Below the pieces are notes generated by a model that saw only the letters and a program-made list of their open reading frames with translations, did no database searches and had not been told where the DNA came from. DNA of 63,071 bases, filler included, from Platydemus manokwari (lineage: Eukaryota), in NCBI GenBank assembly GCA_037951405.1. It is 6 parts of 6 records of this genome, joined end to end, with 100 filler letters (N's around TTAATTAATTAA, not from the genome) between each part and the next. Parts side by side here need not be neighbours in the genome. Positions count along the whole stretch, not along the records: positions 53,220 to 63,071 come from JBBMOY011196876.1; 5 more parts are not named here. The stretch is one strand, 5' to 3'. The translations under genes and the position numbers were made by a program. Of this stretch, positions 13,803 through 63,071 are shown piece after piece (position 1 is the first letter of the stretch; the number at the start of each line of letters is the position of its first letter).

Positions 13803-14389
13803 TTGGCTAAAATTAACAAAAGGGGGTCCTAAAATAAAATTTTGAAATTGTTGAGTGTATTGCAATAATCTATATAGTTTATTTAATCAAATTCTTTAAA
13901 AACATTTCGAATTTTTTGTTTAAGCATTTAAGAAGAATTTTAGTTGTTTGAAATCAAATATTAAATAAACTGGAACATCAAAACCTAATAAAATTCGATC
14001 ATTTGAAAAAGGAACCAAAATAGGACGAATTGTTAAAAATTAGTGAGGACCATTTTAGCATTAGAAGCAAATCGTGAGATACTTTCAAATTTTACGATTA
14101 TTTTATAAAAATAAGCAATGATATTATTAAACATGTCTGTGCTTATTAACTCGATTTATAATTAAAAAGTTTAAATCTTAAAACTCAAATAATCATTTAC
14201 AAGTTTTGTTATTAGAAAAGGAACTTAGTTTTCAACATTCAACATATGTTCATATTCAACATTCTAAAAAGTGAGATATTAACCGAATTATATTAATAAA
14301 TCAAACATCGCAATTATATATAAAATTAAGTTATAAAATTATCTCATGCGCGAAAATTCCTTATGATCCCTTTTCTTAACTTAAGCCAA
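13803..14389 (+). mobile_element. MITE-like element with TTGGCT(A/T)AA-type terminal inverted repeats
   Basis: Left end TTGGCTAAAATTAACAAAAGG; right end CCTTTTCTTAACTTAAGCCAA. A second, inverted partial copy lies at 15450-15779. Confidence 0.65.
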
Positions 14390-15449: not shown

Positions 15450-15779
15450 GACATGTTTCAAAGTCTAAAATTATTTATTTTTTGTCAAATAATTGTAAAA
15501 ATTTTAAGTACGTATCAATTTGCTTTTTATTTCCTAGGCTAATTTTCATTAAATTGCATTTTGACCTACTTTGATTCCTTTTTCAAATAATCAAATTTTA
15601 GGAGATTTTTAAGCTCTAATTTATCTAATGTTTTAGTTCAAACAACTAAAACTCTTCTTAAATACTTGAAAAATTGAAAATGTTTTAAATCATATAATTT
15701 AATAAACTATATAGATTTTTGCAATGCACTCAAAAATTTAAAATCTTATTTTAGGACCAATTTTCTTAACTTTAGCCAA
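15450..15779 (-). mobile_element. Inverted partial copy of the 13803-14389 MITE
   Basis: The reverse complement aligns by eye over ~330 bp with 13803-14137. Shared blocks include GGTCCTAAAATAA, ATCTATATAGTTT, TTTTAGTTGTTTGAA, ATTTGAAAAAGGAA and AAACATGTC. Confidence 0.75.
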
Positions 15780-19819: not shown

Positions 19820-20528
19820 CAGTGGCTTTCAACCTTTTTGTTGCAGAAGAATCCCGCAGAAACATTCTTCTGGTCTGAAGAAGTACTGTGCAATAATTTC
19901 ATTGATTTATGCAGAAAACAGCATTTATCTTTTAAAATGAAATAAAAGTATTTATGTTCAGAGTATTGCTCATGTATGGTGATGAAATGAAAACAAAATT
20001 ATCCGTGTTTGAATAGACTAAATTTATTCTTATCAAAAACTCAGTGGGAAATTTGAGCCTGGTGTTTCTTGCACAACTCTTTAAGATTCGTTCCTGTTTT
20101 TGACAGACACACACACGAAGTTCATCTTCAACAGACAGCAATGGTGCTCGCTTCTGGTGTTTAATGGTTGTCAGAGCTGAAAATCCAAATTCATCCAAAT
20201 ATGATGTTGAAAATAGCACAAGAAGTCGTAGCGCTTTCTGGGCAATTGCAGGATAATCCTTTTCAACCGGCAACCAAAATATATAAAAGCAAACCTAATA
20301 GTGGTAGGACAAAGTAATTTTTCAAATGTAGCGAGTTTAATTATGTTAAATTTTGTATATTTAAACAAGAAATAATAATAAAATTATAAAAATAATAATA
20401 ATAATAATAAAATAGATTTTCGAATTTGAATTTAACATGTTATTTATTTGTTCGTTGTTATAATTTAGAAATTTAGAAATTGCAGAACTCCAGGAGTGTA
20501 CTGGTGGAACCCAGGTTGAAAACCACTG
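19820..20528 (-). mobile_element. Non-autonomous hAT (Buster/Charlie-type) DNA transposon, 709 bp
   Basis: TIRs CAGTGGCTTTCAACC / GGTTGAAAACCACTG. 8-bp TSD ATTCAAAC / ATTTAAAC (1 mismatch, nnnTAnnn). Internal remnant FWLPVEKDYPAIAQKALRLLVLFSTSYLDEFGFSALTTIK...KKHQAQISH* is a Buster C-terminal dimerisation domain. Confidence 0.92.
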
Positions 20529-26900: not shown

Positions 26901-28424
26901 AAGTGGTTTCTAAACACCAAATACAAACTTTCTTATTCTGCAGTAAATATATCAAAATCAACTTCGTATAATACATATCATGTTTTAGTTGAAAGTTACT
27001 GTTTCAAAAATACAACTACAGTGAACTCTTGTTATCCCGAATCCATTAATTAACGAAAACCAACAATTGCCGCTTTTAAAGCTCCCAGTCACATTGCAGA
27101 TATATTAAAGAAAACTGTATTGAAAAAGCTACACCAAAAGAATACGGATTATTTCGGTGATTAAAAACCATAATGCATCTCTTTAAACAAAATGCTCATA
27201 TGTTTATTTTGTTGTACATTTATCATGGTAGAAATGGTATTCTTTGATCATCTTTAATGTAAAAAAAATGATTGAATGTCTAATTCAAATCATCTTTGTG
27301 AGGATTTTAAAAAGAATTAAAATTAAAAAATATATTTTCAGAATCTATATTAAAAATATAAAATATCAATTTTATTTACTTAAATAATACACTTTTATGT
27401 GTTCTGACTTTTCAATATGTTTACAATTCGTACTTTATGAAATAGCAAAGGCTTACACGAATATATCAGAGGCTTTAACAAAACTTGCTCAACGTGGTTT
27501 CAACACTATAAGTAAAGCAACTGATAAGTTTTGCTTTATAAAAAGTTGGTAACCTGCCTCAAATGTTTTAACTTGCCTTATCAAATTATTCCACAGACAT
27601 AATTTGATTGAATCGAATCGCCAATTAAAATATTAATTAAGAACAACAAATATTTGCCGGACATTCTATAACTATCATAACTGTAGTAATTTCCATAATT
27701 ATCGTATTTATTAGTATAAATTCCATCCTCGGATAAATACCGCACTTAGAAATTTGTAAATCGAAATAACACCCCGGCAGTTATACGAAGAAATGTTGTA
27801 ATTAAAAATAACTAAACAAGAAAACTTTATCAAAAACCGGTTTTTCATATATCAAATATTGTTATCTAAAATAAAATTTTATACAAACCTGATCGAAAAG
27901 AATTCGATAGTTTAATTTAAGCTTTTCCTTTAAATTTTTATTCTTAAAAAATTATAATTGCAAAGATAGGAAATTTAGAATAAAAATATTCGAATAAAAA
28001 ACTCCAATTGTAATGGAAGAAATATTGCGACATTAATCACTGAAAATTAGCCTCTAAAGCAAAAAAATTATATTCATACCGTAGAATCGATAGCATTGAC
28101 CGCTGGTGCTGGTATGTGACTAATTTCTTCTGTTTCACTGTCGCCATAAACTACCCCCAAATGACCAAGAGTGACTATAGGCCATCGTATCTTATCGGAA
28201 TATTTTTTAAAAAAATATTTAATAGCCTCAAAAGCGTCCGCGATGCTTTTAATTGGCATATGAATTAGCAAAGAGGCCTCTGTTTCATTGGGACAAAACA
28301 CATCAACACAAGGCATATTTGATAAATCCAATCCAGAATCGGGAATAGGAGCAGGGTTGAATATCGTAATTACATTATTTTGTCCTGCTATCTTCAAAGC
28401 GTGATATGTAGATTCGATTGGAAT
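23988..28424 (-). CDS. RBKS: Ribokinase (PfkB family), last two exons; 5' exons not in this contig
   Basis: Exon 28424-28080 (IPIESTYHALKIA...IFNPAP...VFCPNETEA...IVTLGHLG...AVNAIDST) splices in phase 0 to exon 24155-23988 (GAGDCFAGSLAY...ASLSVQKPGTQSSFP...KF*). This gives the PfkB signature DSTGAGD and the ribokinase motifs NPAP, PNETEA and GTQSSFP. Confidence 0.93.
27017..27800. mobile_element. Possible degenerate pogo/Tigger-like MITE in the ribokinase last intron
   Basis: Left end TACAGTGAACTCTTGTTATCCCG resembles Tigger-type termini. CTCGGATAA and a TTGTA end near 27730-27800 are the eroded inverse. Confidence 0.3.
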
Positions 28425-30293
28425 CTGATTGATGAAGATTGATCAAATTTAAATTTTCATTAACAAAAAATCTACTCAAAACATAAATATATTAATCGTG
28501 TGAGTAATGATTAGATTTGGGATGGAAATTTTCCTACATTTGAAGGTTCATTAAAAATATATTAATTAAATTTTTGCTTTTATAAGAGCTCCATGTTGTC
28601 ATTAGAATTGAAAATGAAAATTTCTGACAATTTTATAAAGAACCAAAAGAAATAAAATATGCATAAATATTATATCTGAAATAGTGAAGCTGAAAATTTC
28701 CTAGATATTAATAGATAATTTTAATATTTTCGTAATTCGTTTCGTGATAGATATGATGTTAGAAATCAAACTACACTTAAAAATAGATGTCCATAGTCAT
28801 GAGATAAGTGATATTGATTGCTATGGAAATTATCATGAGTTCGAAATCACAAATAAGCGAAATATTAAATACTAATAAGTCAAAAGAAATAAATACTGCT
28901 ACGCAGATGGATTTCCTACAGGTGCTAGCAGTGTTTTAATCACCAAACTCATAAATGTAAATTTCAAGTTATAAAAGAATTAACTTTGGATGATATTTGA
29001 AGAAAGAAAATCGGCAATATTTTATAACTTGATAAAATGTGATAACCGTCTTATATTTGTCTTTTAAAACTAATTTTTCCGAATGATTACAATGATATGT
29101 AATACACCTATCGATTGAGCAAACGGGAAAAATTACTGAAAAAATAGAAAGATTTTTGAAAATTACAATTCAAATAAGTAGCAGAATTAGAGAAATAGTA
29201 ACTGTTGTGAATATTTGAAAGTTTTGATAAATAATTATATAAAGAGTACGTGCCTTGAGGAATTAATTCTAGATTTATCAACATTGTAACATTTTTCGAA
29301 CGACAACAAATAAGTACTGGTAAATCCAACACCCCTCTTATATATGGTCTATTGGAAAGGTAGGTCTTGAGAAGTTCACGATAGTCGCAAAAATGTAGAT
29401 TATTTGTTTGTCTAAAATGTGAATAAAGCAAGTAACATGTGAGATGTCCAATGCGACTCAAAAGTTTCTTAACAATATTGAAAGGTACTCCTAGAATTAC
29501 GGATCATCTGAAGATCGCATAAAATCAATTTCAAGAATGAAGGGTTCCAAAGACACTATTACCGCATTTATTTGAAAGACAAGATTTACTTCACTTGAAA
29601 AGAACAGAGTTCTTTGCAAATCATGAAAATAACTCAATGACTATGATGTTATTAAAGATAAGTTATTATTATTTTTCTCCATGGCGTGATAAATCATTAT
29701 TATAAACATTGTTAGTATCAGCACTAGCCACATCATTTAAATTTTGACAATTATTAGAATCACTCATTAAGAAGTTTAATATTTATAAAAAAATAGATTT
29801 TTAATTAAATTAAAATATTGCCAAGAGAATGTTAAATAATGTACTTCGTGATCAGAAATATAAATTTTAATATAAATAAATAGTATGTTTAAATAATTTA
29901 AAAATTATTCCATTTTAAAATTTTTAGTTATTTAGTATTCCCCACAATAGATGTTTGCTGATGTGTGATCAAAATGCAATCAAAAATTCTCATTACCGGT
30001 GACAAATGATAATAAAGTTGATTGAATTGAATAAATGTCAGGATCGAAAATTATCGAATTATGGAGTAGTCAAATGCTACCCATTATCAAGTAAAATTAT
30101 ATGTTGAAATTGTCAATGATTACATTACATTTTTATATGGTCTTTTTATCAAATCTTTGTAATTCCTACATAATATTCTTTAGGGAGTCTCAGGAAAACA
30201 TAATAGAAAGCATTTTAGATTCGAATTAAATAATCTTTGCCAAATTTTATAATAGGTTCTTTAATCTACCTTTATTGTGTTAATTAATTAATT

Positions 30294-30393: not shown

Positions 30394-31540
30394 GTGTTAT
30401 TGAGATTATAAATCAAATAAATCTGGTGATTTTCATTAATTTATTCACAATCTAATTTGCCATATATTCATTATTGATTATCCAATCATGTCACGTATTT
30501 ATCTATTGAATCTGATGATGATGTGTGTGTGTGTGTGTGTTGACCCAATAGTGATTGAAATGGAAAACAAATAGTCAGTGTTTCGTTCAGAGGAAAATAT
30601 TTCATCATTATTTTTATAAAGAATTTATAATTTATTAGCATTTCTCTGATTCTTATATTTAACATTCTTGAATAAAACATTCAATGTCGATAAAATTTTG
30701 AAATAAATCAATTATTAATAACTTGTATCCGAATTTCGGTGTTAAAGACTTAATATTTCTATGAAAAATAATATTAATTCGAAAAAGGAACTTCTTTACA
30801 AAGAATTCTCAATAAGACATTGATATTTTAATTGTAAAATAATCTCGAAAGACAAGCAAAGCTTAATTTATTGTTGGAAAAAATGAAAATTAATAAGTAT
30901 TACAATTAAATTGCAATTGTTTGTTGGTCTCAAATAAAATTGAATTGAATATATAATGTGATTATTAAATTCACAAATATATGTATCAAGAAATTAAAAA
31001 AAAATATTTGCAATCCAACTTTGCTCCGGATGTCACACTTGGCTGAGTCGCGCATTTTTCTTTTTCAATATTCATGATTTGATGATTAATCTAACCTTAT
31101 TCTTTGAATTTCACAATGTTTTTTTTGTTTTGACGAAAACACATTCGTTATTTATTGAAATCACAGAGACATATAAATAAATCATTGAAACTAGTGAATG
31201 ACAAATGAATTATGTCAGTAAAATTTGGATAACAAATATTTTTTCTTTTTATATTTCTGTTTTTCAGCTTGTAATTGATAGCTAGACATCGATATGAGAA
31301 TTTTACATGGAATACAAATATTTTGAAGAAAAATGGTTTTGTTCTAATATTAATATAATGCTACCTTATTATTTTCAACAATAAATATAATAATTAAATA
31401 AAAAAAATTATTTTAAATATATTAATAAGATAAAATTTTTAGTATAATTTGGTTGATTTTATAAGCAGAGATTATTTTTATATCGAAACAAAAAATCTGT
31501 GTAAATGTTGAGCATATTTATACAATGAAATGTTTTATAG

Positions 31541-34500
31541 ATCAAAAATCATTGTCACCCATACAATGCGGTTGTTCACATTATAATAATAATCACCTGT
31601 GCGAAGTTTGTGATACTTGTGAAAAAATGTCCACACTGGATAATGGTCCCCCCAAATTTGAAGAGTACCGTGTGAATGCTGTTGATTTAATCAGATATGT
31701 TTTGAGTCGACCGGAAGAATGGTTCGTGGAGATTTTCATTTGTCTCGATTGTCGACTGAGATTTAAATTGTGGGCAGATTCCATTCAAATACATAACAAA
31801 TATGATTTGGAATCCAATCTATGTAAACAGAAAACCCAACTGCCCCATGATGTTGAATCAGCTTGTGTTACGATCATTGAAACACCGATTGCTCCCGAAA
31901 TTGTTTGGGATTTGTTTCAGAAATTAGATCCAACGACAGTTTCTAATAAATGTTTGGAGAAATATTTAATTCTAAAATCTGATCCGACTTTGTTGGCTGA
32001 ATCTCAAAATCTTTTGCGTTGTGTGGCTATGTTTGAACGGGAATGTTTGCGTCAATCTATTTGCTGGTGTTGTATACAGCATATTCATAATTGGGTTTTA
32101 CAACATGAAGACTTTCCTTTGTTCCTTTATCAATCAATGGTCCAGGTTCGACAAATGGTAATCGAAAGAGTACAAGATTATGACAATGTAAGTCGATTTT
32201 TACGAAAATTTATAACTTGTCTTGTTATAATAATAATTTAACAATAATAATAATAAATGTTAGAAAATATAAATTAATATTTGTTATAAAATATAATTGC
32301 CTACTTAACACTAATAAATAACTTCGAGCCTCTGTCACTTTTAATAAATTACTTTTTAATAAATCATTTCTCTCTTAGCCTTGTTGAATCGAAAGAAAAA
32401 GTTAAATTTCCCAACCATCACTAATTAGCTTGAATGGTATTTTAATGGGTAATATTTTCCTACGATAATTGATATTTGACTGAATGAAAGCAATGTCGAC
32501 ATCAACGATGAATCATAGTGCTTGAAATTTAAGCGTTTTTTGTTTGATGTTAAATCACTGAGATAAATAATTATTCACTACTGATAACAAGCAATACCAG
32601 TAGTGTTTGCAAATAAGCCAATATATATCCCATCAAATTATTACTATGACATTGATTGTCATTAACTGAGTTAATACCATTAAAAGCTAATATTAATTTT
32701 TTCATTTTGTTATCCACTATGGCAACTAAGTCAATATTTTTCATTGGACAATTCATTGATAAACAGAAAAAAAGCATCAATTTATGCAAAATTGTTCAAC
32801 TGTCTCGTTATTTTTTTGTTAACATAGATGAATAATATTGAGTCTGTCTCTAACTTCGTCGTTATGAAGCCCGTTTTGTTTCTTATGAGACACACAATCA
32901 GTCTTTCTCTTCCTTCGCAAATACAGTTTAAACTGATACGCTCACATTGAAGCCACATAACTCTTTTAATGCGATTACGTAATAAATGGTCACAATTATT
33001 GTCAGGTCAATAAGTGTCATGTGATTACTGAAGTTACTAACTGTGTTTAAAAGGCACTGAGTAAAAAATATGTGTTGTCAGTTCATTGCCCGAGAAGGAT
33101 TATTGATATCAAATTGATTTTGTTCCGATTAATCGTGATTTTCTATTACCAATTGTTCTTTTCACGATTATACTGTCTCGAATATTTTCATTTTATCGTG
33201 CCTTGAAATATCGAATGATTCAATATATGATAATTAGATTGGTTAAAATGATGTCAACACATATTTAGGGACGTTATTATCAAATGACTAATTTGTGCGC
33301 TCTATTAAGTGAATTAATCAAAAAATAATATTTGAAAATATAAATTATCACAAATAAATTTCTTTTCTACAACGCTATTTTTATAAAAAAAATTTCGCAA
33401 TTTTAATGATTTGATATTTTTATTGACTATCTTGCATGTCTAAAATAATTTTAAAAATTCCTTAAAATATTGATTAAATAAATAAAATGTTCTTTGGTAA
33501 AAATGGTAAAAATTTTACATTGATATGCTTAATAATTATGATATGACTGCGAGATATTGACGAGATTCGGTTTGGTTTCTCTTAGCAACCAGAATTGTAA
33601 TATTTTTGGTTCTCAATGCTTTTCCAGTGATCAAATGTGGAGTTCTTTTAAAAATATAATATTATGAATTTGTAGCTATTTTTTGTCATTGAATTATTTA
33701 AATATTATTTTACAATTTATTACTTAATTATTATTAGATTAATTAATTAATTAAATTTATTAATTTTTAGAACATGTTTAAAGTCGACTGTAAAGACAAT
33801 GAGAAGCCAGACAAAGTTAGATTTGATTGATGAAATTCTTTAATTGTTTATTCAATATTTTGACAATATGATATAAATATTTAATTAACATTTCATGAAT
33901 TCTGATTAGTTTTAATATATCAAAGATTTACTGGATTTATCTATGAAAACGAAAGGAAATCAGTGAATGTGACTATTTGATGTTGGTTTAATTTTTACTT
34001 GGTTTTCGAAGAAATTGATTGTAAATATCTTAACGGAGGGGAGATTATTTTTATAAAAATTACAAAGATTTTTTTACAGCCGAGTGAATTTTGTTGCACT
34101 CTACTAGATTAAAGGCATGCCAATTATAGATTAAATTAGAATGGGTGTGCCATTGAATGATTCCCAATCAGATTATTAGTAATAATAACAAAAAATGACA
34201 CATTTATAAACAAATCATGAAAATAATATCATTTTGATTGAAATATTTCCATTAGGAACTCGTAAAGATTAAAACCGAGGATAATATTGAACCTGTGCTT
34301 GAATCTCATACCAAAGATAAATCGTCAGATGAGAATAATGTTTATCAGCAGATTTCAAATATTAATGAAACCAGTGAATCAATAATGATGGAACATTGTA
34401 TGGTTTCAAATACCTCAAGTCACTGTTTCAAACAATTGGAGTCTGCCGACTTGCCTTTTATTATATCAGATTTCTATCCGTCGCTTTTAGATGGAAGTAA

Positions 34501-37500: not shown

Positions 37501-40500
37501 ATCTGATACTCGAAAGTCATCATTTGACAATTAGTGACTTTGCTGACACTGTAAATATTTCATTTGATCAGTCCAGATCATTTTCAGAATTGTATCGTGT
37601 CTTACGTAAGACATCATTACGGGAGATGAGCACTGCATCTACGTCTTCGACTCGGAAATAACTGACTAATGATCCGAATATAGTGCTAAAAGTTATCCAA
37701 ACCTGAAAAAATCTCGTCTTTAATCGTCTAAAAATCAAGTTCATGTTAACAGTTTTCGACAATTGAGGTGTTGTGCACTATGATTTCCTTCTGCTCGTAG
37801 AAACTCTTAATAAGAAATATTACGTCTGAGTTATGCGTTTTTTACGTTTGGCCATGCACCTGACCAGAATTATGGGCATACAGCTCTTGCTTTTTGCACT
37901 GATTTGGTTCTTCGAGAATTTTTAATCCAAAACCCAATTCATATAGTTCCATAATCATTCTATTTTTTGATTTAGCATTGTGCTTCTTCTAATTTTGATA
38001 AACTACCGAGGCATCATTTTGGATAAGTAGATAAAAGCCAAATCGTAGAAAGTATTGAAGTTAATTCCAGAAATGGACTTTAACAAGTGTTTAGAGAATC
38101 GGAAAAAATATTGCTATCAATGTAATATGTTAGATGAACATTTCTTTGTAGGCGATGAAATTGATTTATAAGAATAAATAAAGATTTTTCTTTGCATTAC
38201 AAAATTCCCGTTCATATATGATCACAATAGTTATTTATATATTTATTTGTTTTATGGAATATATTGTAATATAAGAATAATTTCAAAAATGTTTTCTATT
38301 GCTCCATAAACTTTTAATTGAAATTGTTCTATTTTTGATTGATTTTTAGAATATTCAAATTAAAAGTATATACATGTATATAGTTATGTGATAAGATAAT
38401 GATTAAATGTAGTTTAATTTTTTCAATAGATTGATTCTTATTCCGTCCGAAAATGGCATTTACAGCCACTCGGTACTACATTGCAGAAAATATCGCCTCG
38501 TAACAATTTCACTGAATCGCATCTCGTAGTTCCTTGTCTCACATTATCTGGTACCGGTCTGACTGAATCTAGCATCCGTTTGTCAAAATGTGGTCGCACA
38601 ATCGCAGTGTTTGTTCCTCGAATTTCATTTATGCGTCTTCATTCAAAAGAAATCGTTAAAAATAATACATCTTCGAGGAAAAGGCAGTATTCTAAGGCTT
38701 TCAGTGGATGCTTGAGCTCAGACGAATCATTACTTCTTTCAAACAATTCTGTTGTGGCCATTTATGCTTCTGAACCTGAATCATCTTGTGGTCAATTATT
38801 ATACTATTTTGAAATGCCTTACAATCCAATTTCGTTGGATTTCTCTCCCCTAGGTGATCACCTTATTATAGGCTTGCCAGGATCTCAAAATCAGTCTCAT
38901 TTGTTTTGGATAAATTCTGAATTCACACCTCAGTCAAAGAACTCGTTTACCATTGGGCCTCCCTCTGATAATCACTGTAATATTGGTAAGTGATAAATTT
39001 TTGATCTATTTTTGATTAATTTATAATTGTAAAAATCAATTCAATTAAAGCAAATAACTTCACTATATAATTTGATCACTTTACCAATATAAGTTTCTTG
39101 ACCTTATTTCTTAATCCCTACACTGTCCTCAAATAAAAAGTTCAAATGTTTTTGATTAAATTTCGTTTGATTTATAAAAAATCTGATTCATTTCTTAATA
39201 GTTTTTTTAATTGTCAAAATCAAATCAAGATCTTTAATGACTGAATGTGTAAAGCCAATGATCAAATTAGTTGATTTATTATTATTATTGATCAGCATTA
39301 TTACACGGTAATAATTTATAAAACACGCTTCGAAAACGAACTGAAAAGACATGACAATAAACAATGTATTCAAATACAATTATCTAAAACAGTATTTCCA
39401 AAAGTGGGTGATACCGGTCCCTGGTGGGCGCTGCAAGGATCCAGGGGTTGGTGGTGAATCCAAGCTCATTTGGGGGCGATAATACTATAAGAATGTAAGA
39501 AAATAATTATTAAAAACTTTGATGAGCCCATGTTACAAAATTGGTAGCACCACAACAGCTTCATTCTTCTCATTAACATAATTTCCAGTTTTTGTATTAA
39601 AATCTATTCTAAGTGCAATAAATATGTTCTTACTTTCAAAATGTATTGTTTCTAACTAATTTATATTTTTTTAATATATTTAATGAAAAAGGTAGTAACA
39701 TTAAGATTTTCAAATAATTTGTTACTAAAATTTTTAAAAAATTGGTGTGGGTTAGTTTGGGGGCGCTAAGTAATATTTATTTTGAAATGGGGACGGTACA
39801 CCCGAAAAGTTTGGGAATCACTAATCTAAAATATTAATATCATTTTAAATAAAATTAAATTCTATATAAATTTAAATTTTACACAAGATCAAATCTGTAA
39901 AAATTTAATTCAATTTTAATGTGCTCACAAGTATAATGAAATTGTTCACTATTACGGTTTAAATCGTAAATTTCAGGCACGATCTAATTGATTTTCTTGA
40001 AACTGCTCCTATGTGTGCGATTACTTATATTTGAAATATATAATTGATTTACAATTGATTTTATCGTTATTTGTAAGGGTTTGTGCAATTTAATTAAAAA
40101 TGTAATAATAATTCATGCATATCCATGAATATCTAATATTTTTATCCTTGAAAGATCAGTCCATTCTTTTTAATACTTTGATCTTGTAGATTAAATATAT
40201 TTCTTGGCTGTTGAAATTTCTTTAAAGTCATTCAAAACATTTCGTCAAGAAAATATTTATTGTTAAATCTTGTTGTAAAATCACAACAATTCAATGGATT
40301 TAATTGAATGAATTATATTTCAAGAAAATAATGATAATATTATAATGAGATAGCTATTGTTCTGAATTTTTACATTTGAAAATTTAGAGTTAGATGTTTG
40401 TCTTTTATTTTGGTTCTTTGTCGAATTGTAGGTCTCATTTTGAATATTAACTCAACGGAAAATGACATGGATACCGGGCATAATTCAACACTACCGAAAT

Positions 40501-46500: not shown

Positions 46501-46876
46501 ATAAAATTTCACAAAATTGAAAAAAATTGTTCTAGTAATTGACTTTGTTTTAATGTATCAAAGTCAATCAGAACAGAAATTATAAATAATTATTAAACTA
46601 AATTTCTTTAAAAACCGTTTAAATTTTTTTTCGAATTTAAATAATTTAATGTTTTAGAAAAGAATTATTGATCTCCGTAAATGCCTAGACAATAAAGATG
46701 TATATTCCTTCCGACCTGGTATAGATGATGATAATTTGGTCTTCATGAAATTAGAATCAGAAAAGAAAAACAAACGAAGGCTTTCTCAAAAATATGTACT
46801 AGGGACATTGATTTTAGTTGTAACTGCTTCAATTGCTGGAGTATATTCCGGTCGATTTTATTGGTCTCATGCTTGA
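43546..46876 (+). CDS. 3' exons of an unidentified C-terminally (tail-)anchored membrane protein
   Basis: Exons 43546-43614, 43665-43724 and 46658-46876 (all phase 0, GT-AG, first intron 50 nt) give DEDASNENCKQQSPDWSLNSTVL-KAEKLKTSIRFYINENVHIQ-KRIIDLRKCLDNKDVYSFRPGIDDDNLVFMKLESEKKNKRRLSQKYVLGTLILVVTASIAGVYSGRFYWSHA*. A basic patch precedes a ~20-aa hydrophobic segment and a short tail. Confidence 0.65.
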
Positions 46877-53390: not shown

Positions 53391-56300
53391 GTAATTGTAA
53401 CCTGGATAAGGTTACAACACAGAGCATTGAGAAACAAACAAATGTTCAACCGTTTCAATGAGATATTGTAGTCGGATATTGATTCGAGACTTTGGGGTAT
53501 TTGTAAATTTGTAGTAGCATGGTGATCAAAAGTTCACTGGCCATACATTAAATTGTGCATATTGACTCATTTTACACATATTTTATGTTGACATTCACAG
53601 AATTTGACAGAAATGGTGTTGTTGACGAACTTGTAGCAGATCAAGCATTTATCGGTATTGCTTTCTTTTACCAAAGGTTTTATTGATCAATATGTTCCTC
53701 GATTATTTCTCGTGTATAAAATTATTAATGATATGAAATATTTAAGGTTGCTTCTCAAATATTAAATTAATTTTGACTTAATGGATCGAATAATCTCACA
53801 TATTCAAAGGATAAAGCATTGCCACACTTAATTGGCCGCATCACAGTAATGAACTTTTCAAAATTTGTAAGATGGAAATAAAGCCATGGGACTATATTTT
53901 GAAATTGACTTTGCTGTTCTATTAATCAATTAATTCTATCGATAAATAATTTATTATTATGAAATTGTTTATCTTCTCTTAACAAAACATTTTGATATTC
54001 AATTTTGAAAGCATTTTCATATATATTTTTAATAAATGTTTAAGTTAATTCATGAGCACATTGTACCATATCTAACAATAGAGTTACTCATTCGGTGTAT
54101 TGTTCTAATCTAACAGTGCACAAAATTTCTCGTCAATATTGGTCAAGTAGTTTTCTTTAATTTCTCACGATAATAAACTCGATTGGTAACGTATCAATAG
54201 GGCAATTAGGGCATATAGGGCATGATCAAATATAATTATTTCAAAACATTCTCTACAAAATCTATGATTACGTAATGTGAAGTGTGGGCAGGTATCGCAT
54301 TCAATATTTAAGTTTTCATAACAAATTTGACAATCAATATAATCATTAATTTTGTAATTAGATTATTATTTGTTATTAATTAATCAACTTATTAAATTTA
54401 TTTTTTTAATTTTTAAATAAGTTTTATTTAAATTTCAATATTTTTAAATTTTTAAAAATTTTGACTGATATAACTCAAGTTGCCTGTTAGGCAATTTTTA
54501 AATATTTATTTTAAATTTTTCAATATTTAAAAACAATTTTATTTATAAAATTAGTTATCAAAAATTTTAAAATAGACTTAAGATCTCTTGCATCTTATAA
54601 ATCTTACAGTTCTGATTATTTAGATAGTTAAATTAACATGGTCGTAACCATTGATATTATTTATAACTAAGTTAATTGTTTAATTTTCGTTACAAGTCTT
54701 AGTTTTTACATATTTATTTAGATATAAATAACGATAAGTCAAAATCAATAAATTCTTTTATTCACAAAATAAAACTTATATATACTAATATCAAATGTAA
54801 ATGAAGACAGTTACTAACAATGAAATCGACGGGAACTATGTGATATCCGATTTTATTCAAAATGAACGTGTAAGAATCAAACATATTTGATTTTACTAAA
54901 GAGGATAGATATTCTTCTAGAAAAATGTGCTTCTACAAAGTTATCATTTACCATCGTTATTTAATAAGTTACAAAATTTAACTCATATTGCATGAACAAA
55001 AATAAATTTTTACTGAGGATTAGTTTCATTAATCAATTTCTAGAACAATAATTGGAATAGATCTTTTAGTGATTTGATAAATTATCCAAATGAATGTAGT
55101 CTTTAGAAATGATAGGTTGATTGTGAAACTGAATTTAACAACATATAGGCATTAAGTCTCTTAATCGGATTCTTAACTGAATAGCTAAATTGCTTGCCAA
55201 TGAATATGTTAGAAATTGCATTCAAGTATTTATTTATGATGTTTGATTTCTATTGACTGGGGTTCTTTTGCAGAACTGCAATGCGAAATTAGTTGTTTTT
55301 CATAAAATGTGCATGTTGATGTGACTATATGCATGGTTGCCGTGAGGGTTACTATTTATGTAAATTTATATGCTTACGTAGTACATCATCACCTAAAGTA
55401 TATATTGCTTAAAATGTATAGATTTATTCTCAGCACTGTTGAATCAATATGAAATCATTTTGCACTATTCTTGATTTTTTGTAACTTTTTATTAATTACA
55501 TTGAAATTTTGGCATTATATAAATTTCATTTGAAATTTGTTGGGTATAATGTTGGATTTTCTTTTGTGTTTAGTATTGATAAAGCTTAATCTTATTCGTA
55601 ATTAGATTGGTGAAAGGTGTTAACAATAAAGATAAACAAAAATCTGACTATACTTTTCCGACCAAGTTGAATATAAGTTAATATAAATAATGTTGTATTC
55701 AAGTCTTGTAGTGAACACCTAGGTGAACACTGGTTTTTTATATTAATTAAGTACTCAATCTTTTTCTTAATTTGATTAACCTTTTAAGCATTTTATTTGC
55801 TTAATTAATTTTGCAATCGAATTTGTTATTTATTTTAATTTTATCTTTAACTATTTTATTTGCTATTTATTATTACTTATTATCGAAGAATAACAGAAAC
55901 AATAACGTATTGCATACATTTTTCATTGTACTAACAAAAAAATGTATACAGAAATAAAATTAAAAATCTACCACTATAAATCATCAATTATCCATTTAGC
56001 ACCCATTTGTGAAAAATAGCTCGAAGGTGGAATCAGACTTGGGATTTTATTTGTTGATGGTTATATGATTTATGTAATACTGCAGGATATGAGTTAAGTA
56101 TAAAGATGATATTTGAAGTATTGAGTTCTATTCTATTTATTGTTTCTAGGATCCAAAAACTGCTTTGCACCTTTTATTGTATTTGTTGGGATTTATGTGG
56201 ATTGGTAATAATCAATGTCTATATGTACTAGTGAATTTGGGATTTAAATAAAGAAAATTCTATGCAGATTTCTAAATTATTCTAATCCTAAACAATTTAT

Positions 56301-59145
56301 AATTAACGGTGTAGTCAGATGGGATAATATTACTTAATAAGAAAATTCAAATGAAATCAACAATAATAAAAAATTCCTGACAAATAACCTGAGAAATATA
56401 TGGAATAATAATTATGCTAAGTTTGTTAGTCTTGAACTTAACGTGTTCTACTGAATCTGATTCCTATTCTGTTTAAAGATTCGCAATAAAGGAAAATATT
56501 TGTTAAAAGTAGTGAATACAATTTAGGCACAAGGGGTATACAGTCATTTTAAAGTAAATTTGATAAGAGGGATTTAATCTCAGATACTTCTCTTGGTGAT
56601 ACCAGCATGTAATTTTCTCGATGCTACTACAAATCGTTTTATACTAAATCATCAATTAACATCTTGTTAATACACTACCTTTACATCTTTTCTCCTATCT
56701 GGGCAGAAATTTTCTTGTGATTGATTTGTTATGGTCAATATTTTCATATTTACATAGCACGAATCCGAATTTCTCCTCAAATAATGAAATTAATCACTAA
56801 CTTTTATACATTATATATAACATTGCTTTTATGAACATGGTGACGATATTTGTGTCTCTATCAGTTTGCGACATCTTTCTATTTTGTTTTGTCTTCTTGC
56901 GTTTCTCGTGTATGTGTCTATTCTTACCAATACATTGAGTATCATCTAACATTATAAATTTGCTCGTGGTTTCTTTTACATCATGGTCTATTATTGAAAT
57001 ATTCGGATAAACAAATAAATTTCACGATATTAAAATTGTTTGAAATGGTGTAGATTAAGTAAAATTACAGTCTTATAAAATTTATGCTTGTGAATATTGT
57101 GCAAATGGCTTTTGTGCGTTTTAATTTATGTGAAATGTGACTTGAGTCCTAATTATGTTTTTTCTATTTGTCATTGTGTTATTGCATTTTATTTTGAATT
57201 ATCTGTTACCATTTCAGCAATATCTGTTAAGATTTTATGTACATGTTTATTTTTGGTAACAAAGTTGCTATTTATTTTTTTATTATTATGTTTGAAGAGT
57301 TAATGCATTAAAAAATCCAACAAAATTATATATATGGAGTTTTCATTTTGGTTTGTTTTTTATATTTCTTTTCTTATTTAACATTTATAGATATGCTTCT
57401 GTTTATTATCATGCTTCTGTTATGTATATTTGGGTTTCTAATTTTGGATTTAACTAATTTTAAATTCTTTTTTCTCCGAAATTAATGTTGCCTGTATTAA
57501 TTTTTAATAAGCCTTTAAATGTAGTTAAAATTACCTTAAATTAAAATTACCTCTTGTCAGTATAAATAATATTATGAAAGTGTCGATTTCTACAATTACC
57601 CAGTATTATTGAGATTGTTTCAATTGTCACAATTATTAGTCTTTGAAATATTAATTTTTTTTATTTTTGAGACCAAGATACAATTATTAAAGCATGCTTT
57701 TGGTAATTTTGCTGTTAAGACGTTTATTAAAGAATGATATAATATATACTATATCCAGGAATGTTTCAAATTTTTATAAATTATCTTTTTGATCTATTTC
57801 TTCAAATTGTTTCAAGAGATTATTATTTTCTATTAATTGCTTTTTATATTAACCACTGACATATGTTTCTTTAAAAAAACTAACGGTGTTTTCATTGTAT
57901 TTTCTTATTTCTATATGCGTCGCAACAATCCCTCTTGTGCCTGGTCATTTGTTTCTCGACAACTAATATAAGTTTTTGTTATTATTCATACTACTCAATT
58001 TGTCTTTATAGTAATTAATAATCAGTTTTCAATATATTTATAAACGACTTCAATTGTTATTATATAAGTATAGTAATAGTTATTATACACTGCACCTTTG
58101 GAGTCAGGTGTTGTAAGATAAACGATAATTCAGGAACATGCATAACTTACCCACAAACTCAAACCAAAACACAGTATAAACCCCAACAATACTATTAGTT
58201 GAATTATAAAAATAAATTTCGTGTTGATATGAAATTTCGATTCCAAACTTTGTCATATAAATTCTTTTGCAAAGTTTTCACTTTGAAATAATTTACTTTC
58301 ATTCCTTATTAGATTTAGATGTCTTGAGTTTAGTTTTATGTAAATACTTTTGTAGATTTTCTATTGTAGTTATTCTATTTTATGATATTCCTTGACTTCA
58401 AGTTTTACATTTTGGTAATATTATTTCTGATGATTTTGAAGTTGATTAAATAAGTAAAAAACTTTATGTTTGTAATTATTTGATTGATCACATGGTATCT
58501 CACAATCTATTTTAAAATAAAATTTCTTTATTAATAATACTCAATAATTACATGAAATTTCATAATAATTTAATTTTTGAAAAATAATTAAGTGCTTATT
58601 ATGCTGATTCTCCATCTTTCTACGAGTTTGATTATTAGAATGGAAAGTAGAATTATCAATTGAAATAAGTTAATAATAAAATTAAATAATGCATTAAAAT
58701 GTAAAATTTAATGTGACTAAATATTATAATTACACAAGTTAATCATAAAGAATCCAAATCTGATTATTTAAATTTTAATATCTTTTGTTCATTTCACCGA
58801 AAAGAATATATAACCGAAATTAATTTTTATATAGTGTTGGGGTTTATTAGTTTCACTAAATTGATTCTTATTAATTAGCTTATCCCTTTATCCCAACTTT
58901 TGCGTGTTCTAATTATAATCCTATTATTTTTTTGTATCACCTAACTCCAAAGGTGCTGTGTATTAACTATGCTAGTGATAATCAAGAGTTAAAACAGATT
59001 TGGTTCATAAGTATATTTTGAGATATAGAATACAATTGAATTATCGAATACACGTAAAATATAGAGTACAATATCGTAAATAAAATTTTAACAATAATAG
59101 TTAACAAGTTTCAAAATAATGACGTTTTAAACAAATAAGCAGGCT

Positions 59146-60332
59146 TGTTGGGGTTTTATTAAGTTTGCGCTTAATTAGAGTAATTACCGACTCTATATAG
59201 ATAGAGCGTATAATTTTTTGGTGTAATCTCTTAGGTTTCCCTGTAAGAGTCCTAAATTTGAAAGATTATTGGAGGTTAGGCCTACTTGGCACCGTAACCT
59301 TTTAAACGGAATTTGTTTTAAGATTTTAGAGTTTAATAGAGTTTTTCTCTAGTTGACTCGGTTCAGGCTAGAGGATGATAATATAGCAAAATTATTAATA
59401 AAGGCTTTAGAGTTTCGATACTTTAAACACCAGTACATCTAGTCTGCGGTTGTTGGCGTTGAATTAAACGAGGTTATTTATGATTAATATATCAAATATA
59501 ATGATTAGTGATAGTTATTATGAGCAATATATCAAATAGAAATTATTATAATTGCTTAAATTAATATGAATTTAAAATACTGCAATGAGTTTCTTACGGT
59601 GTTGTCCGTGAGGATTTCCTTTGTTGAATTGGAATTAAAAGCAATATTAGATAGAAATTCCTACAGAGATCTGTCCGTGAGGATTTCTTTTGGTTTTTTT
59701 TGACTCTCGAGTTCTTTGATTGAAAGGTTCTAATTTTCTAGAAGAGAGAATTTTAAGGCTGCGAATTTTTTTCCCTCTTGGTTACCACGAATTTCGTTTT
59801 TATAGTAAAACAGATTTGTCGTTGAAGTGAAATTATAGTAGATTAAATTTCTTAATCGGAAATAGCAATTATCTAGCAGATTTGTCCTCGAAATTGGAAA
59901 TGACAATTATCCTCTAATTGTCTAGGTAATTTCAACTTAGTCAGGAAACAATAATTTCTCTTTTTGTTGTAATTTCTGAACTAATTTCCAGTTAGTATAT
60001 TGCGTGTCACCCTTCTCCTTTGCTTTCTTTTTATATAACTCTTAGTTTCTTTTATGGTTTTACCATCTATTTTTATAGTTTTTTATTCCTATTTTTGTTT
60101 TAAAATTTCTCCTTTTGCTATTTTTGGATCATTTTTCTATTCCTGGATTTATTTATTACTGTTTTCTATTTTCGGGTTTTTGTGGGGATTTTCATGTTAT
60201 TATTAATTATATCTTGGTATTTTTAGAATGTGATTAATAATTATTATTATTGTTAAAGTATATGATTATTACATATCATGTTATTATTAATTATTATTAT
60301 CCATAATTATCATCATATTTTGGTTCCCAACA
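59146..60332 (-). repeat. 3' long terminal repeat, 1187 bp
   Basis: TG...CA ends with a 7-bp inverted repeat TGTTGGG/CCCAACA, adjacent to the PPT. TATAAAA on the minus strand near 59797-59803. Internal duplicated motifs TGTCCGTGAGGATTTC (x2) and CAGATTTGTC (x2). Flank AGGCT is the predicted 5-bp TSD. An alternative, more distal end exists at 58835. Confidence 0.75.
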
Positions 60333-60366
60333 TATGCCCCCCTTAAAGTTTTCTCGTCCCGAGAAA
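60333..60366 (-). promoter_or_regulatory. Polypurine tract and upstream hairpin motif of the LTR element
   Basis: AAGGGGGG-CATA directly before the LTR TG, preceded by the inverted repeat TTTCTCG-GGA-CGAGAAA. Confidence 0.85.
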
Positions 60367-60523
60367 TAACAATTAGTTTTCCTGGTTTTTTGTTCTCTAA
60401 TAAAACTTTTTTACAGTGCCATTTTTCAGGCATGAAAGATACACATTTATAAAAGATTCAAGATGAGACACACGCATCAGTTTTATAGTAGTAATGTAGT
60501 AACAGTGAAGTTCAGGTTTATTT

Positions 60524-62022
60524 TTATACAAAAGATATTTGATAGTCCTCATATTTCTTTAGCTCCGGGTTGCTGTAACTTTGAAGGAATTGTTCTCCCG
60601 TTTCCGGCTTGCTGAACTGGATGGCTGTGATCAACCATCGTTCCCCATTTAGTAATACCACTGGCGGTATTATTGTTGGCAATGGCAGGATATTTGTTTC
60701 CTGGCTTGGTTCTGCCATTATGTAGTCTTTATTTTCTTCGTCCTCTGTTGCTGAGACGTATTCTCCTTCTGAGGCCTTTGGTTCATCTTCCTCTGGGATT
60801 ACTTCGAAGAATTTGTGGCTTGGCTTGAGTTGTTCTGGTGGATCGGGTGTTACTGTCGGATTCTCGTCGTTTTTCATTTCCACCTGCTCATTTTTATTGA
60901 TTTCTTCAGGAAGTATGAGATAATCCTGCTATCCATATTCCATGATGCGATATATTTCTAGTATATCGTATGCTTTTTGGCAGGTAACTATTCTTTTTAA
61001 GTTAACATAATTGTTTGGAATGAGTTTTTCTTTTAATTTGGTAAGTCGCTGTATTGCTTTGATAGCTCCTCCATTTGGGTCAGTATTTGAGTAACTCATC
61101 CCTTATTCCAAGAGGTCTGTGAGTAGGGTAATTGAGAGCTTCTAGTGTCTCGTTTACGTTGTACCCTATCACAATTCTTTTGTCCGAAACGGATATAATG
61201 TATCTTTTCAGTGCTTGTTCATTCCAAGAATCTATGATGTCTTTTTCTGTCAATTGATCCGTTCCCTGATTCCTCCAGTGTCGAATATAATGTCGAGGTG
61301 TAACAATTGTATTTAGTATAACTTGTCCCTCGTAAGTTAAAACAGTGACTGCAAAGACGGTCTTGTCGGTATCTTTGCTGCCGGTGATTCTAATGGTTTC
61401 CACTATTCGGGTGGCTAGGATTCTAATATTGCTCCTGATCTCATTTGGAGGCAGATTCTTTCTAATGAAGGAATGCCTATTAAGGAATATTTTCTCTGGT
61501 GTCTAGGTAAGTTAAATCAGTCTAGAGGTGGTTATATTTTTCATCGTCTGGAATGTCGTTGCGACCTGATTCCAGGATTAGAGTTACTGGTAGGGCTGAG
61601 AAGGAAACTCTTCCTTTCAGTATCCTTTCCTCACATTGCGTAATTTCTAAAGCGTTATGTCTTGGGAGGAAGATTACTTCCTCAAGACCGGGAATCACGA
61701 TTGATATTTGAGCTACCGTAGTGTGTATGTACACTTTTTCTGCTCCTGTGGCATAGTTGATATCGTTGAATAATTGTGACAAAGAAGTGATTCTTCGATT
61801 ATTAACGAATATGGTTTCTATGGCTCTGTGGCCTCTATTTGGAAATTTCATGTTGTTCGGCAAGTGTGTTTGGTCCTTAAAGATTTGGCTGTAGCAGGTT
61901 TTTTGCTCCATGTACGTATGGAAATTATTACTTATTACCGTATCTACAGCATAATTTTGGAATTGTGGAATATTTGGTTGAGTGTGTCCAAATGAGTTGT
62001 AGATGACGTTGTATTGTTTCAT
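60524..62022 (-). pseudogene. Disrupted ~500-codon accessory ORF: unknown N-terminal domain, DEDDh (REX/ISG20-like) exonuclease fold, acidic linker, conserved C-terminal module
   Basis: ORFs 61522..62022, 61080..61403 and 60524..60883 are collinear pieces. There are breaks at ~61503-61524, a frameshift at 61097 (GIRD/SYSN, cf. paralogue GIKDLS) and a TAG at 60929-60931 opposite a W in the paralogue. The core AVTVLTYEGQVILNTIVTP...RIVIGYNVNETLEALNY.....IRD follows the REX4/ISG20 pattern RVS+V...G.V+.D..VKP...RILVGH....DL..L......IRD. Joining of the N-terminal piece is the least certain part. Confidence 0.75.
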
Positions 62023-62308
62023 TTTCTAAAAATAAAGATTAAACATTTAAGGCTGATAACATATTGTACATCGTATTCGATATAATATGTTATATTGAAT
62101 CTCATAGTTGATTTTATAGTTTTAGACTTTTTGTATTTTATGCTCTGGTTATTTGTCATAGGTGTGATATATTTATTAATTTAGATTATGAATAATAAGA
62201 ATGAAGACATAAGTTATATAATAAGAATGAAGATATACTTTAGATTATACAAGGTCATAAATAATCACAATAGTCAATTGCTTAATCGTTATCAGTATTT
62301 GGCTCTTG

Positions 62309-63071
62309 TTATTGGTCTGGAGGCTTGTTGTCCGGCTTTAATTTGGCTCTTGCTTGTTCCAAATCTGCATTACTGATATCGAGACATAATTCATCTGAGT
62401 CGTCTTCACATGTATATAGGATGGCTGTAATGTGCCATCTCTTATTTTTGACGATTATAGTTCGCAGAGTTGTCGGTGGCAAATAGGGTGCCTTTTCCCC
62501 TCTTAGCTGTGGGATATCAGTGTTGATATCAGTGCTTATTGGTTCGAGTTGAGCTCTTGTAAGTGGGGTTGCCCCATACTTGTTCCTTTTCGACATGGGT
62601 TCTGAATTTCCTACTTCTATTTCAACTTCCACTACTCCGGCGTCCAAATCGATGGATTCGTAGTTTGATATTAGCTGAGTGGTGTTGACTGCTGGTATCC
62701 ATTGTGCTTTTATAATGTTGTGGATCTCCTTTATTTGTTCCACTTGGTTGTTGGTTTCTAACTCGTGGACTTTCTTTAATGGGTTCGTCAGTAGTTTTTG
62801 TGCCACTCTTTTAAGTTTATATGGTCTTTTATCATAGACTTTGTACTTGGTTAATAGTTCCTCCGTTGATAGATCCTTTATTCCCATAATACGGTATGTA
62901 GGAAATGCTAAAGCTTTTATTATATCAGCCACTTGAAAGCCTATTAAGACTTTTTGATCGATTATTTCCGATCTTTTCTGTAGTGTCTGACATAGTTTCT
63001 GGGAGTTATTAATGAATTAATTAATAGTTGCCCGTTTCGATTGAGAATTGATATTGAGCAAATAGTAGTTA
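62309..63071 (-). pseudogene. Upstream paralogous DEDDh exonuclease-like accessory ORF, 5'-truncated by the window and frameshifted
   Basis: From 63069 it reads TTICSISILNRNGQLLINSLITPRNYVRHYRK, then a frameshifting deletion at ~62972, then SEIIDQKVLIGFQVADIIKALAFPTYRIMGIKDLS...PYKLKRVAQKLL...LPPTTLRTIIVKNKRWHITAI. It is collinear with the downstream ORF. Confidence 0.78.

Follow-up and report, generated by a model that had tools for sequence, protein, structure and literature searches.

What kind of proteins are encoded by two related reading frames that were predicted to take the place of env or of the integrase end in an LTR-like element of Platydemus manokwari, and would they still cut RNA? 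The frames lie at the end of the last contig (53,220 to 63,071) of the window, the whole 63,071-nt stretch of DNA that we analysed. The original prediction took them for sense-strand paralogous ORFs derived from a captured and duplicated host exonuclease of the REX/ISG20 type. All six peptide blocks quoted in it are present in the minus-strand translation, where the following features were delineated.

62977..63069, minus strand: first visible piece of ORF1 (frame -3), pseudo-DEDDh domain, strands after Exo I
62309..62965, minus strand: second piece of ORF1 (frame -2), Exo II and Exo III regions without catalytic residues, linker and C-terminal motif
62023..62308, minus strand: AT-rich spacer between the ORFs, ending in the splice-acceptor-like TCTTTATTTTTAG
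61570..62022, minus strand: N-terminal domain of ORF2, predicted double-stranded beta-helix of the 2OG-Fe(II) oxygenase (AlkB/P4H) type
60930..61475, minus strand: pseudo-DEDDh domain of ORF2, from the ISG20L2 match, Atlas and alignment
60524..60928, minus strand: acidic low-complexity linker and C-terminal motif of ORF2, common to ORF1 and relatives

ORF1 continues past the window end (63071), and its Exo I lies outside the window. Its first piece was recovered by tblastn at 38-63% identity over 25-30 aa, seven relative queries being joined to the next piece, and at the break (about 62976-62966) the frame changes and about 25 codons are absent in comparison with relatives. ORF2 runs from the ATG at 62022 to the stop at 60524 through three frames, with a stop at 61524-61522, frame changes near 61502 and 61096, and another stop at 60931-60929, so that this copy is decayed as had been claimed; the ORF1 gap and the N-terminal part of ORF2 (~170 aa) go beyond that description. 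The ORFs have no apparent introns, and the host genes in the window appear as short exon pieces. The acceptor-like TCTTTATTTTTAG stands 4 nt upstream of the ORF2 ATG, and on taking the observed value as threshold a comparable site within 10 nt was found for 23 of the 2296 ATGs in the window; the RNA fold of the spacer is unremarkable (z -0.82). On aligning the two ORFs with X at the breaks we obtained a score of 164 (mean 40 and maximum 65 for 300 shuffles) with 32 of 113 identities in the exonuclease region, which agrees with the old paralogy predicted; the closest relative of ORF1, however, is not ORF2 but a database protein with 44 of 125 identities. The C-terminal motif is identical at 12 of 40 positions (pairwise E 9e-5); its region in ORF2 matches the relative P0004 (z 6.2), and the C-terminal piece of ORF1 matches P0002 (z 10.9).

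The hmmscan-type check of the exonuclease assignment gave a divided result, as Pfam found nothing significant on the window's own pieces (7), while profile and structure matches to RNase_T/ISG20 were obtained. A direct PDB search with ORF2 gave ISG20L2 as the best match at a marginal E of 0.017, and with the window piece RNase_T was found in 25 of 30 Atlas matches (best 0.91). The family profile matched ISG20L2 at 3.7e-25, ISG20 at 4.5e-13 and SDN1 at 5.9e-11. The full DEDDh domain and the full-length fold were modelled for the relative P0003 and not for the window protein; this model has the RNase H-like alpha-beta-alpha exonuclease fold and superposes on ISG20 with Z 18.0 (rmsd 2.9, 161 aligned). 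We regard it as practically certain that both ORFs carry the DEDDh fold of the ISG20/REX type. The best sequence and structure matches, namely ISG20, ISG20L2 and Arabidopsis SDN1 (1wlj, 7yw5 and 5z9x), are active cellular enzymes with D-E-D-H-D in chains that have no AlkB-like domain, whereas ORF2 has A, R, T, I and K at these five positions (0 of 5 catalytic residues). None of the three visible sites is kept in ORF1 (I in Exo II, L and Q in Exo III); an Asp is found one position ahead of its Exo II site. According to the accessible text of PMC10899777, each of the five catalytic residues of ISG20L2 is individually essential. Judging from these residues, the DEDDh domains of both ORFs are very likely catalytically dead.

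The exonuclease domain is only one part of the protein. The model of the N-terminal domain of ORF2 (~150 aa; pLDDT 84.8, pTM 0.80) has a double-stranded beta-helix core preceded by an N-terminal strand and helix, and it retrieved 2OG oxygenases in all the top rows of a structure search at 3-12% identity: ALKBH6 (Z 10.5, rmsd 5.2, 147 aligned), an algal P4H (Z 10.3, rmsd 3.1, 140 aligned), Ofd2 (Z 10.2, rmsd 3.1, 131 aligned) and ALKBH3 (Z 9.9). The P0003 model likewise matches ALKBH6 (Z 11.8, rmsd 3.7, 138 aligned). AlkB and the prolyl hydroxylases tie in Z for the ORF2 domain, and the likeness is one of fold only. A motif scan of the window domain found no HxD/E iron motif, which occurs in 2 of 17 aligned family rows at unrelated positions; two other positions are conserved, a His (13 of 17) and a Glu (14 of 17), both away from the HxD/E site on an inferred strand mapping, and no conserved basic column for the 2OG-binding Arg/Lys is seen in the last strand as judged without residue-level superposition. 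The family profile search gave no AlkB chain at E<=1, and the Atlas search with the N-terminal domain gave no usable match. An AlkB-like fold is nevertheless likely from the modelling. Its fusion to the exonuclease domain is visible in ORF2, the start of ORF1 being outside the window, and the full-length model, having a pTM of 0.68 although 128 residues are at pLDDT <50, suggests that the two domains pack together. No report of an AlkB-like domain fused to an ISG20-like exonuclease was found in the literature searched. Thus the exonuclease fold and the paralogy of the original prediction stand, but its single-domain unit gives way to a three-part protein (AlkB-like fold, DEDDh domain, and acidic tail with C-terminal motif). 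The unit moreover belongs to a larger family in which some branches are intact and others dead, which leaves the capture and duplication account incomplete.

This family comprises at least 22 relatives of the ORFs (26-35% identity) of 420-610 aa, with the exonuclease domain at residues ~150-350 as in ORF2 and the specific motifs SFxR, TPR and GIRDL; P0021 owes its length of 1113 aa to acidic repeats. DEDDh is retained in the 10 relatives of the intact group that cover all five sites, while the Exo II Asp is lost in 9 of 9 nearest-clade relatives and the His in all 7 that cover the site. In a tree rooted on a single long branch, both ORFs fall inside the non-catalytic clade with the intact-DEDDh group beside it (SH 0.966 and UFBoot 92 for the split; 97 for the inner eight). 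Since nine relatives in one clade with the ORFs have the same loss, it is older than the decay of this copy, and the working exonuclease originally envisaged is unsupported. The grouping of ORF1 with P0002 (UFBoot 81) suggests that ORF1 and ORF2 may not be sisters, but the monophyly of the two is not rejected (AU p 0.34, only 2000 replicates). The dead members have G, P, R, G, G, I and D at seven columns that are invariant in 11 of 11, and their keeping of the family motifs argues for selection on the fold. Net charge, compared as a possible sign of RNA binding by the dead domains, did not discriminate, as their values (+1 to +11) overlap those of intact domains (-6 to +11). The curated Pfam cut-off for RNase_T is passed by 10 of 23 database hits and by none in the dead clade, so that standard annotation would not reveal this clade; the only NCBIfam models to match were generic DnaQ/PolC ones, which were found for at most 8 of 20 members. 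No pol fusion was seen among 23 representative hits. A word-index search of longer proteins, with the ORF2 domain as query, gave 0 of 920 candidates, which is weak evidence, and a profile search of 5525 candidates returned P0003 alone. Of the pattern matches in GTDB genomes, 0 of 39 were confirmed in one scan and 0 of 85 in another.

We slightly favour the explanation that an LTR retroelement has left its decayed 3′ end at this locus, with at least two accessory genes from an undescribed family of RNA-binding pseudo-enzymes. In the ancestor, an active 3′-5′ exonuclease for RNA would have had packed against it an AlkB-fold domain that was not catalytic, and in one lineage catalysis would have been lost while the fold and two diverged copies were retained. 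The product of ORF2 may be made from a spliced subgenomic message. The proteins would bind the element RNA at 3′ ends or where it is single-stranded, shield it from host 3′-5′ decay or small-RNA attack and help to assemble the RNP, while partners would be recruited through the acidic tail and the C-terminal motif. Such an RNA-binding accessory role has somewhat better than an even chance. The P0003 model matches Exuperantia (5l80, Z 10.4), which we take to be a DEDD fold without activity. Maelstrom has an inactive DEDD domain that binds ssRNA, as stated in the accessible part of PMC4408791, and EXD1 is named as an inactive DEDD-fold RNA binder in that of PMC5408684. Like the ORFs, these three have the DEDD fold without catalytic residues, but the likeness is a functional analogy and not membership, for they are host genes of separate origins in piRNA or mRNA-localisation pathways. 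Pan2 resembles the present architecture, going by PDB entry titles, in having a dead enzyme domain (pseudo-UCH) ahead of a DEDDh domain, but its partner fold is different and its nuclease is active in a host deadenylase.

Among transposons, the bdelloid rotifer LTR retrotransposons Juno and Vesta are described, in the text available from Rodriguez et al. 2017 (PMC5408684), as carrying a spliced ORF3, a separate gene for a DEDD-superfamily 3′-5′ exonuclease at that position, which makes a DEDD-type extra ORF in an LTR element less unprecedented than had been implied. The ORF3 proteins, however, are there RNase D-like DEDDy enzymes with intact invariant residues (DEED), whereas the present ORFs are ISG20/REX-like DEDDh proteins, dead, in a tandem pair and fused to an AlkB-like fold; the family is of RNase_T/ISG20 type and its intact members have His and not the Tyr of DEDDy. 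The planarian giant Gypsy elements Burro and GYPSM1, compared by description only, are likewise LTR elements of large size, from an animal that is AT-rich; their accessory domains are numerous (MATH, BCL2, BIR, ankyrin, dUTPase and env), and DEDDh or AlkB is not listed in the portion of PMC6431247 available.

It is possible, though rather doubtful, that the dead domains act instead as anti-silencing or anti-restriction decoys, in that they imitate DEDDh nucleases of the host, such as piRNA/miRNA trimmers and ISG20/SDN-like factors, or else AlkB-family enzymes that modify RNA, and sequester the substrates or partners of these; the intact members would degrade small RNAs directly. The closest solved relatives do include the small-RNA nuclease SDN1 and the antiviral ISG20, and the family is highly diverse (17-37% identity to P0003), but strong divergence may simply reflect age. 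The available part of PMC9289625 describes, in a giant Gypsy of Phalaenopsis, an AlkB-like 2-ODD extra ORF, a demethylase for which counter-defence is proposed. Its likeness to ORF2 is the 2OG-oxygenase fold in an LTR element; by that account it is a recent capture near plant demethylases and m6A-active, whereas ORF2 is alike at the level of fold only, without HxD/E and fused to DEDDh. The decoy reading overlaps our favoured one, the main difference being whether the target is a host factor or the element's own RNA.

Whether the ORFs belong to an LTR element at all depends on the features that follow them on the contig.

60333..60344, minus strand: polypurine tract (PPT) AAGGGGGG at 60344-60337 with a 4-nt spacer CATA
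59146..60332, minus strand: candidate 3′ LTR of 1,187 bp, TG...CA, with 7-nt inverted termini TGTTGGG…CCCAACA
59141..59145, plus strand: AGGCT flank, putative half of a target-site duplication, from sequence only
58835..59140, minus strand: probable 3′ terminal part of a related LTR that is older than the element inserted in it, sharing the AAACCCCAACA end
57940..58188, plus strand: third LTR-like end of similar kind in the opposite orientation

The PPT, one of four GGGGGG runs in the window, lies about 180 nt past the ORF2 stop on the same strand, and its spacer adjoins TGTTGGG at 60332 (AAGGGGGG-CATA-TG at 60344-60331). The candidate LTR has TATATAA at 60037 and AATAAA at 59160, and CCCCAACA terminates at 59146 with AGGCT alongside; an alternative end is seen at 58835. 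For a pattern of PPT and termini defined post hoc, with the sequence already seen, 41 of 300 simulated contigs had it anywhere, but when it had to lie on the sense strand, no more than 600 nt downstream, the count fell to 7 of 3000 simulations. The evidence therefore consists in the position beside ORF2, and to that extent the LTR-like 3′ end with PPT is borne out. The last 120 nt of 58835..59140 resemble the 59146 end (score reached by 0 of 300 shuffles), and this region is homologous to 57940-58188 (score 79, maximum 50 in 200 shuffles), so that an earlier LTR of the same kind, of which this is the 3′ end, was probably hit by the insertion; the 59146 and 58188 ends themselves are not significantly alike (22 of 300 shuffles attain the score). 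An LTR reaching 58835, or pairing with an element starting near 56184, was rejected, as a comparison of the LTR with 55500-57950 in five segments showed no similarity. No second copy of the candidate LTR or of the ORFs was found within the window, a lone tblastn match to the ORFs (46673-46813, E 0.016) being read as chance, and the other end of the element, with the partner of AGGCT, would lie outside the window; the Rfam scan of the last contig and the tRNA scan of the whole window gave no match.

These features bear on the alternative that the ORFs come from the host, as genes or pseudogenes, or from another kind of mobile element or a Maverick-like DNA virus, and stand by chance beside a solo LTR. 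In its favour, gag, RT, RNase H and integrase were found in none of the 103 ORF pieces scanned, the window stopping inside ORF1, and with two further LTR-like ends on the contig LTRs are dense here. The contigs of three relatives (P0009, P0023 and P0024; 14,253-15,888 nt) are compatible with unit-length elements but would also suit Mavericks, given as 15-40 kb and expanded in Dugesia in the accessible text of bioRxiv 10.64898/2025.12.11.693146; contig sizes cover 4 of 24 proteins, the fourth being 1,862 nt. Against it, a PPT is present on the strand of the ORFs just before the LTR begins, and a solo LTR would not bring a PPT. Phage records gave no match, and the BFVD matches are generic exonucleases and oxygenases at 6-16% identity. 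We consider this alternative unlikely and the ORFs probably part of an LTR element, whose assignment as Gypsy-like is by prior only. That the ORFs are two working exonucleases processing element RNA or DNA, whose missing residues reflect the decay of this copy, is highly improbable, for despite the ten intact relatives and the unseen Exo I of ORF1 the ORFs lie inside the clade that has lost the Asp and His. It is equally improbable that they are particle or scaffold components without nucleic-acid function or near-neutral passengers, as the long acidic tails and the rotifer ORF3s (no clear tie to copy number or non-neutrality in the available part of PMC5408684) might allow, since neutral passengers would lose the long open frames and motifs kept at about 30% identity.

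That LTR elements can carry extra ORFs is known, but the class is mostly unexplained, and the ORFs described here define a family with a domain fusion; should the LTR link fail, they would still represent a eukaryotic family of pseudo-enzymes that is not annotated. More speculatively, and we think this doubtful, there may be an undescribed LTR lineage of roughly 14-16 kb with arrays of AlkB-fold/DEDDh proteins, active and double-pseudo-enzyme, serving counter-defence, with the AlkB-like domain as a reader of modified RNA, active members as trimmers of host small RNAs and dead ones as caps or decoys for RNA 3′ ends. If true, this would be a case of an animal transposon encoding a protein that suppresses small-RNA silencing or RNA decay. 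Returning to the reading we favour, the ORFs hint at undescribed transposon helper proteins that bind RNA rather than cut it. They pose the question whether animal transposons encode protectors of their RNA against host decay or piRNA control, which the natural occurrence of intact-DEDDh and dead members in one family makes directly testable.

The window consists of six contigs joined by N44-TTAATTAATTAA-N44 linkers (at 11567, 21395, 30294, 41405 and 53120), so that sequences lying across a linker are not genomic neighbours. ORF1 and ORF2 are present at the end of the last contig (53220-63071), with the window boundary falling inside ORF1; G+C composition ranges from 20 to 39% per kb in the window, which together with the caveolin, astacin, ShK-repeat and PfkB pieces found elsewhere in it points to an AT-rich animal. 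The features of the locus are as follows:

63069 to 62309, minus strand: visible part of ORF1, with one break at about 62976-62966
62022 (ATG) to 60524, minus strand: ORF2, about 500 codons, with two stops and two frame changes
60332 to 59146, minus strand: candidate LTR of 1,187 bp with 7-nt inverted termini, starting with TGTTGGG and ending with CCCCAACA
58835-59140, minus strand: further LTR-like end carrying AAACCCCAACA
57940-58188, plus strand: further LTR-like end carrying AAACCCCAACA

All peptide blocks quoted in the original prediction were found in the minus-strand translation. The break in ORF1 combines a frame change with the absence of about 25 codons relative to related database proteins (e.g. 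P0002, 251 to 279). The paralogy claimed for the two ORFs is borne out by an alignment score of 164 (X placed at breaks), where the best of 300 shuffles reached 65; 32 of 113 residues are identical in the exonuclease region. The C-terminal motif common to both (12 of 40 identical) is shared too, and therefore ORF1 and ORF2 are paralogous as whole genes.

Pfam gave no significant match for the ORF1 and ORF2 pieces. For the ORF2 exonuclease domain the best PDB match was ISG20L2 (E 0.017), and an Atlas search placed RNase_T on 25 of 30 matches (best 0.91). When an unbroken 140-aa piece of ORF2 was compared by phmmer with 1.84 billion representatives, 23 matches were obtained, of which 10 passed the RNase_T cut-off; 22 belong, in our reading, to one family, the remaining one (P0022) being an ordinary REX-like protein. 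A profile from 20 of the 23 matched ISG20L2 (3.7e-25), ISG20 (4.5e-13) and SDN1 (5.9e-11). The predicted structure of the relative P0003 (pLDDT 74.7, pTM 0.68) gave Z 18.0 against ISG20 and a target TM of 0.82 against ISG20L2. The DEDDh fold of ISG20/REX kind thus stands, on the PDB, Atlas and profile matches together with this relative's model.

For the catalytic residues we aligned 22 of the 23 phmmer matches with both ORFs, leaving out P0012 (apparently frameshifted) and trimming P0021 to 620 aa. It may be noted that P0021 (1113 aa) has its acidic linker expanded to about 700 aa, with tandem repeats, and keeps only the Exo I Asp. The D-E-D/E-H-D set is retained in 10 family members covering all five sites, two truncated members retain Exo I, and P0024, a relative found later, has the DEDDh motifs by inspection. 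Nine relatives do not have the set: the Exo II Asp is absent in all nine and the His in all 7 that reach Exo III, with P0004 retaining two acids. At the five sites ORF2 reads A, R, T, I and K, and at the three visible ones ORF1 reads I, L and Q; in ISG20L2 all five residues are individually essential (PMC10899777). On the tree, eleven non-catalytic sequences split from the intact ones (SH 0.966, UFBoot 92), the root resting on one long branch, and an inner non-catalytic group of eight includes both ORFs (UFBoot 97). Since the non-catalytic relatives and both ORFs form a separate group, catalytic loss is older than the decay of the window copy. Seven alignment columns are invariant in all 11 dead sequences. 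ORF1 clusters with P0002 (UFBoot 81), their C-terminal tails matching at z 10.9; monophyly of ORF1 and ORF2 is not rejected (AU p 0.34, from few replicates). By our mapping, the Arg aligned to the RNA-binding R226 of ISG20L2 is retained in both ORFs, which is weak evidence because relatives differ at that position.

The first ~150 residues of ORF2 are alignable with the family; any corresponding part of ORF1 would lie beyond the window end. The model of this N-domain (pLDDT 84.8, pTM 0.80) was compared with 48,161 chains, and the top matches were 2OG-Fe(II) oxygenases (Z 10.5 for ALKBH6, 10.3 for an algal prolyl hydroxylase, 10.2 for Ofd2 and 9.9 for ALKBH3), with AlkB and prolyl hydroxylases tied and identity of 3-12% in the top rows. 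Foldseek placed ALKBH8 first (6.7e-5), and an Atlas search with the N-domain gave no usable match. The HxD/E iron motif is absent from the ORF2 N-domain and occurs in 2 of 17 aligned rows, at unrelated positions. We read the N-domain as a probable metal-free pseudo-oxygenase, nuclease-intact members included. Conserved P-N, Arg, His and Glu (ORF2 piece positions 56-57, 67, 101 and 152) lie off the canonical iron triad and may form an atypical binding site.

About 180 nt past the ORF2 stop lies AAGGGGGG-CATA, followed by TGTTGGG starting at 60332. A pattern of PPT and LTR termini, drawn up after the sequence had been seen, was present anywhere in 41 of 300 simulated contigs, and within 600 nt downstream on the correct strand in 7 of 3000 simulations. 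The 11-mer AAACCCCAACA has 3 copies in the last contig and none in the remaining 53 kb or in 200 simulations. The two further LTR-like ends are homologous over about 230 nt and face each other across 646 nt; because this homology extends almost to 59140, the element seems, from sequence, to be nested inside an older related LTR. Within the candidate LTR there is also a 21-nt direct repeat (20/21; 59603-59623 and 59672-59692), possibly a regulatory motif. A Pfam scan of 103 of the 123 selected window ORF pieces, the ORF1/ORF2 pieces (scanned earlier) and other frames overlapping them being set aside, turned up neither gag nor pol domains. The splice-acceptor-like TCTTTATTTTTAG ends 4 nt upstream of the ORF2 ATG; the window has 2296 ATGs, and 23 of them carry an acceptor of this kind when the observed value is taken as threshold. 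Together with rotifer ORF3s, which are described as expressed from spliced messages (PMC5408684), this is at most suggestive of ORF2 expression from a spliced message.

Elsewhere in the window, a ShK-repeat open frame of 1392 aa (2631-6809, minus), with 8416-8706 and 10637-10975 (minus), has 23 stretches passing in Pfam; it lies downstream of astacin exon pieces and is probably an astacin protease whose ShK tail is unusually long. Two inverted repeat arms, each about 200 nt long (13832-14032 and 15557-15752; 79-80% complementary), lie 1.5 kb apart and may represent a MITE or the remnant of a DNA transposon. A 120-aa frame (19932-20294, minus) presumably resembles the C-terminal dimerisation region of hAT transposases, with no Pfam match at 1e-3. 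At 247-474 (plus), 28074-28442 (minus), 31465-32241 (plus) and 38430-38993 (plus) lie exon pieces for caveolin and PfkB/ribokinase, as well as a Cys-rich frame of 258 aa and one of 187 aa without Pfam matches.

The contigs encoding 4 of 24 relatives measure 14,867, 14,253, 15,888 and 1,862 nt. Three of these fall between 14 and 16 kb, a narrow range compatible with unit-length elements that carry several accessory genes and also with Mavericks (bioRxiv 10.64898/2025.12.11.693146); the one locus that points to a retroelement-borne family is that of ORF1 and ORF2. The family was not found in the GTDB genomes and phage records searched. LTR elements with an exonuclease as accessory ORF, and others with an AlkB one, have been described before: the Juno and Vesta ORF3 is DEDDy with intact residues (PMC5408684), whereas the window ORFs are DEDDh-fold with catalytic residues lost, and an AlkB-like ORF occurs in Phalaenopsis Gypsy elements (PMC9289625). 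Burro element domains are treated in PMC6431247, and other prior art in PMC6338049, PMC5718144, PMC11410931 and PMC13524379. Neither a fusion of an AlkB fold with DEDDh nor LTR elements bearing dead DEDDh ORFs turned up in the mostly open-access literature searched, Repbase and Dfam aside; no earlier description is apparent for the fusion, for the double loss of catalysis or for the tandem arrangement of the pair.

By analogy, the ORF1 and ORF2 proteins are most likely putative accessory RNA-binding pseudo-enzymes that would protect the element's RNA or act as its chaperone. The chief alternative is that they would be decoys aimed at the host's machinery for small RNAs or for RNA modification. 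The active nuclease supposed in the original prediction is unlikely for both ORFs, the catalytic residues being gone at all visible sites and the set being lost in nine relatives too; a working nuclease is plausible as a prediction for the family's intact branch. The RNA-binding pseudo-enzymes would most likely have descended from an active exonuclease ancestor, in parallel with Maelstrom, which was derived from such an ancestor (PMC4408791).
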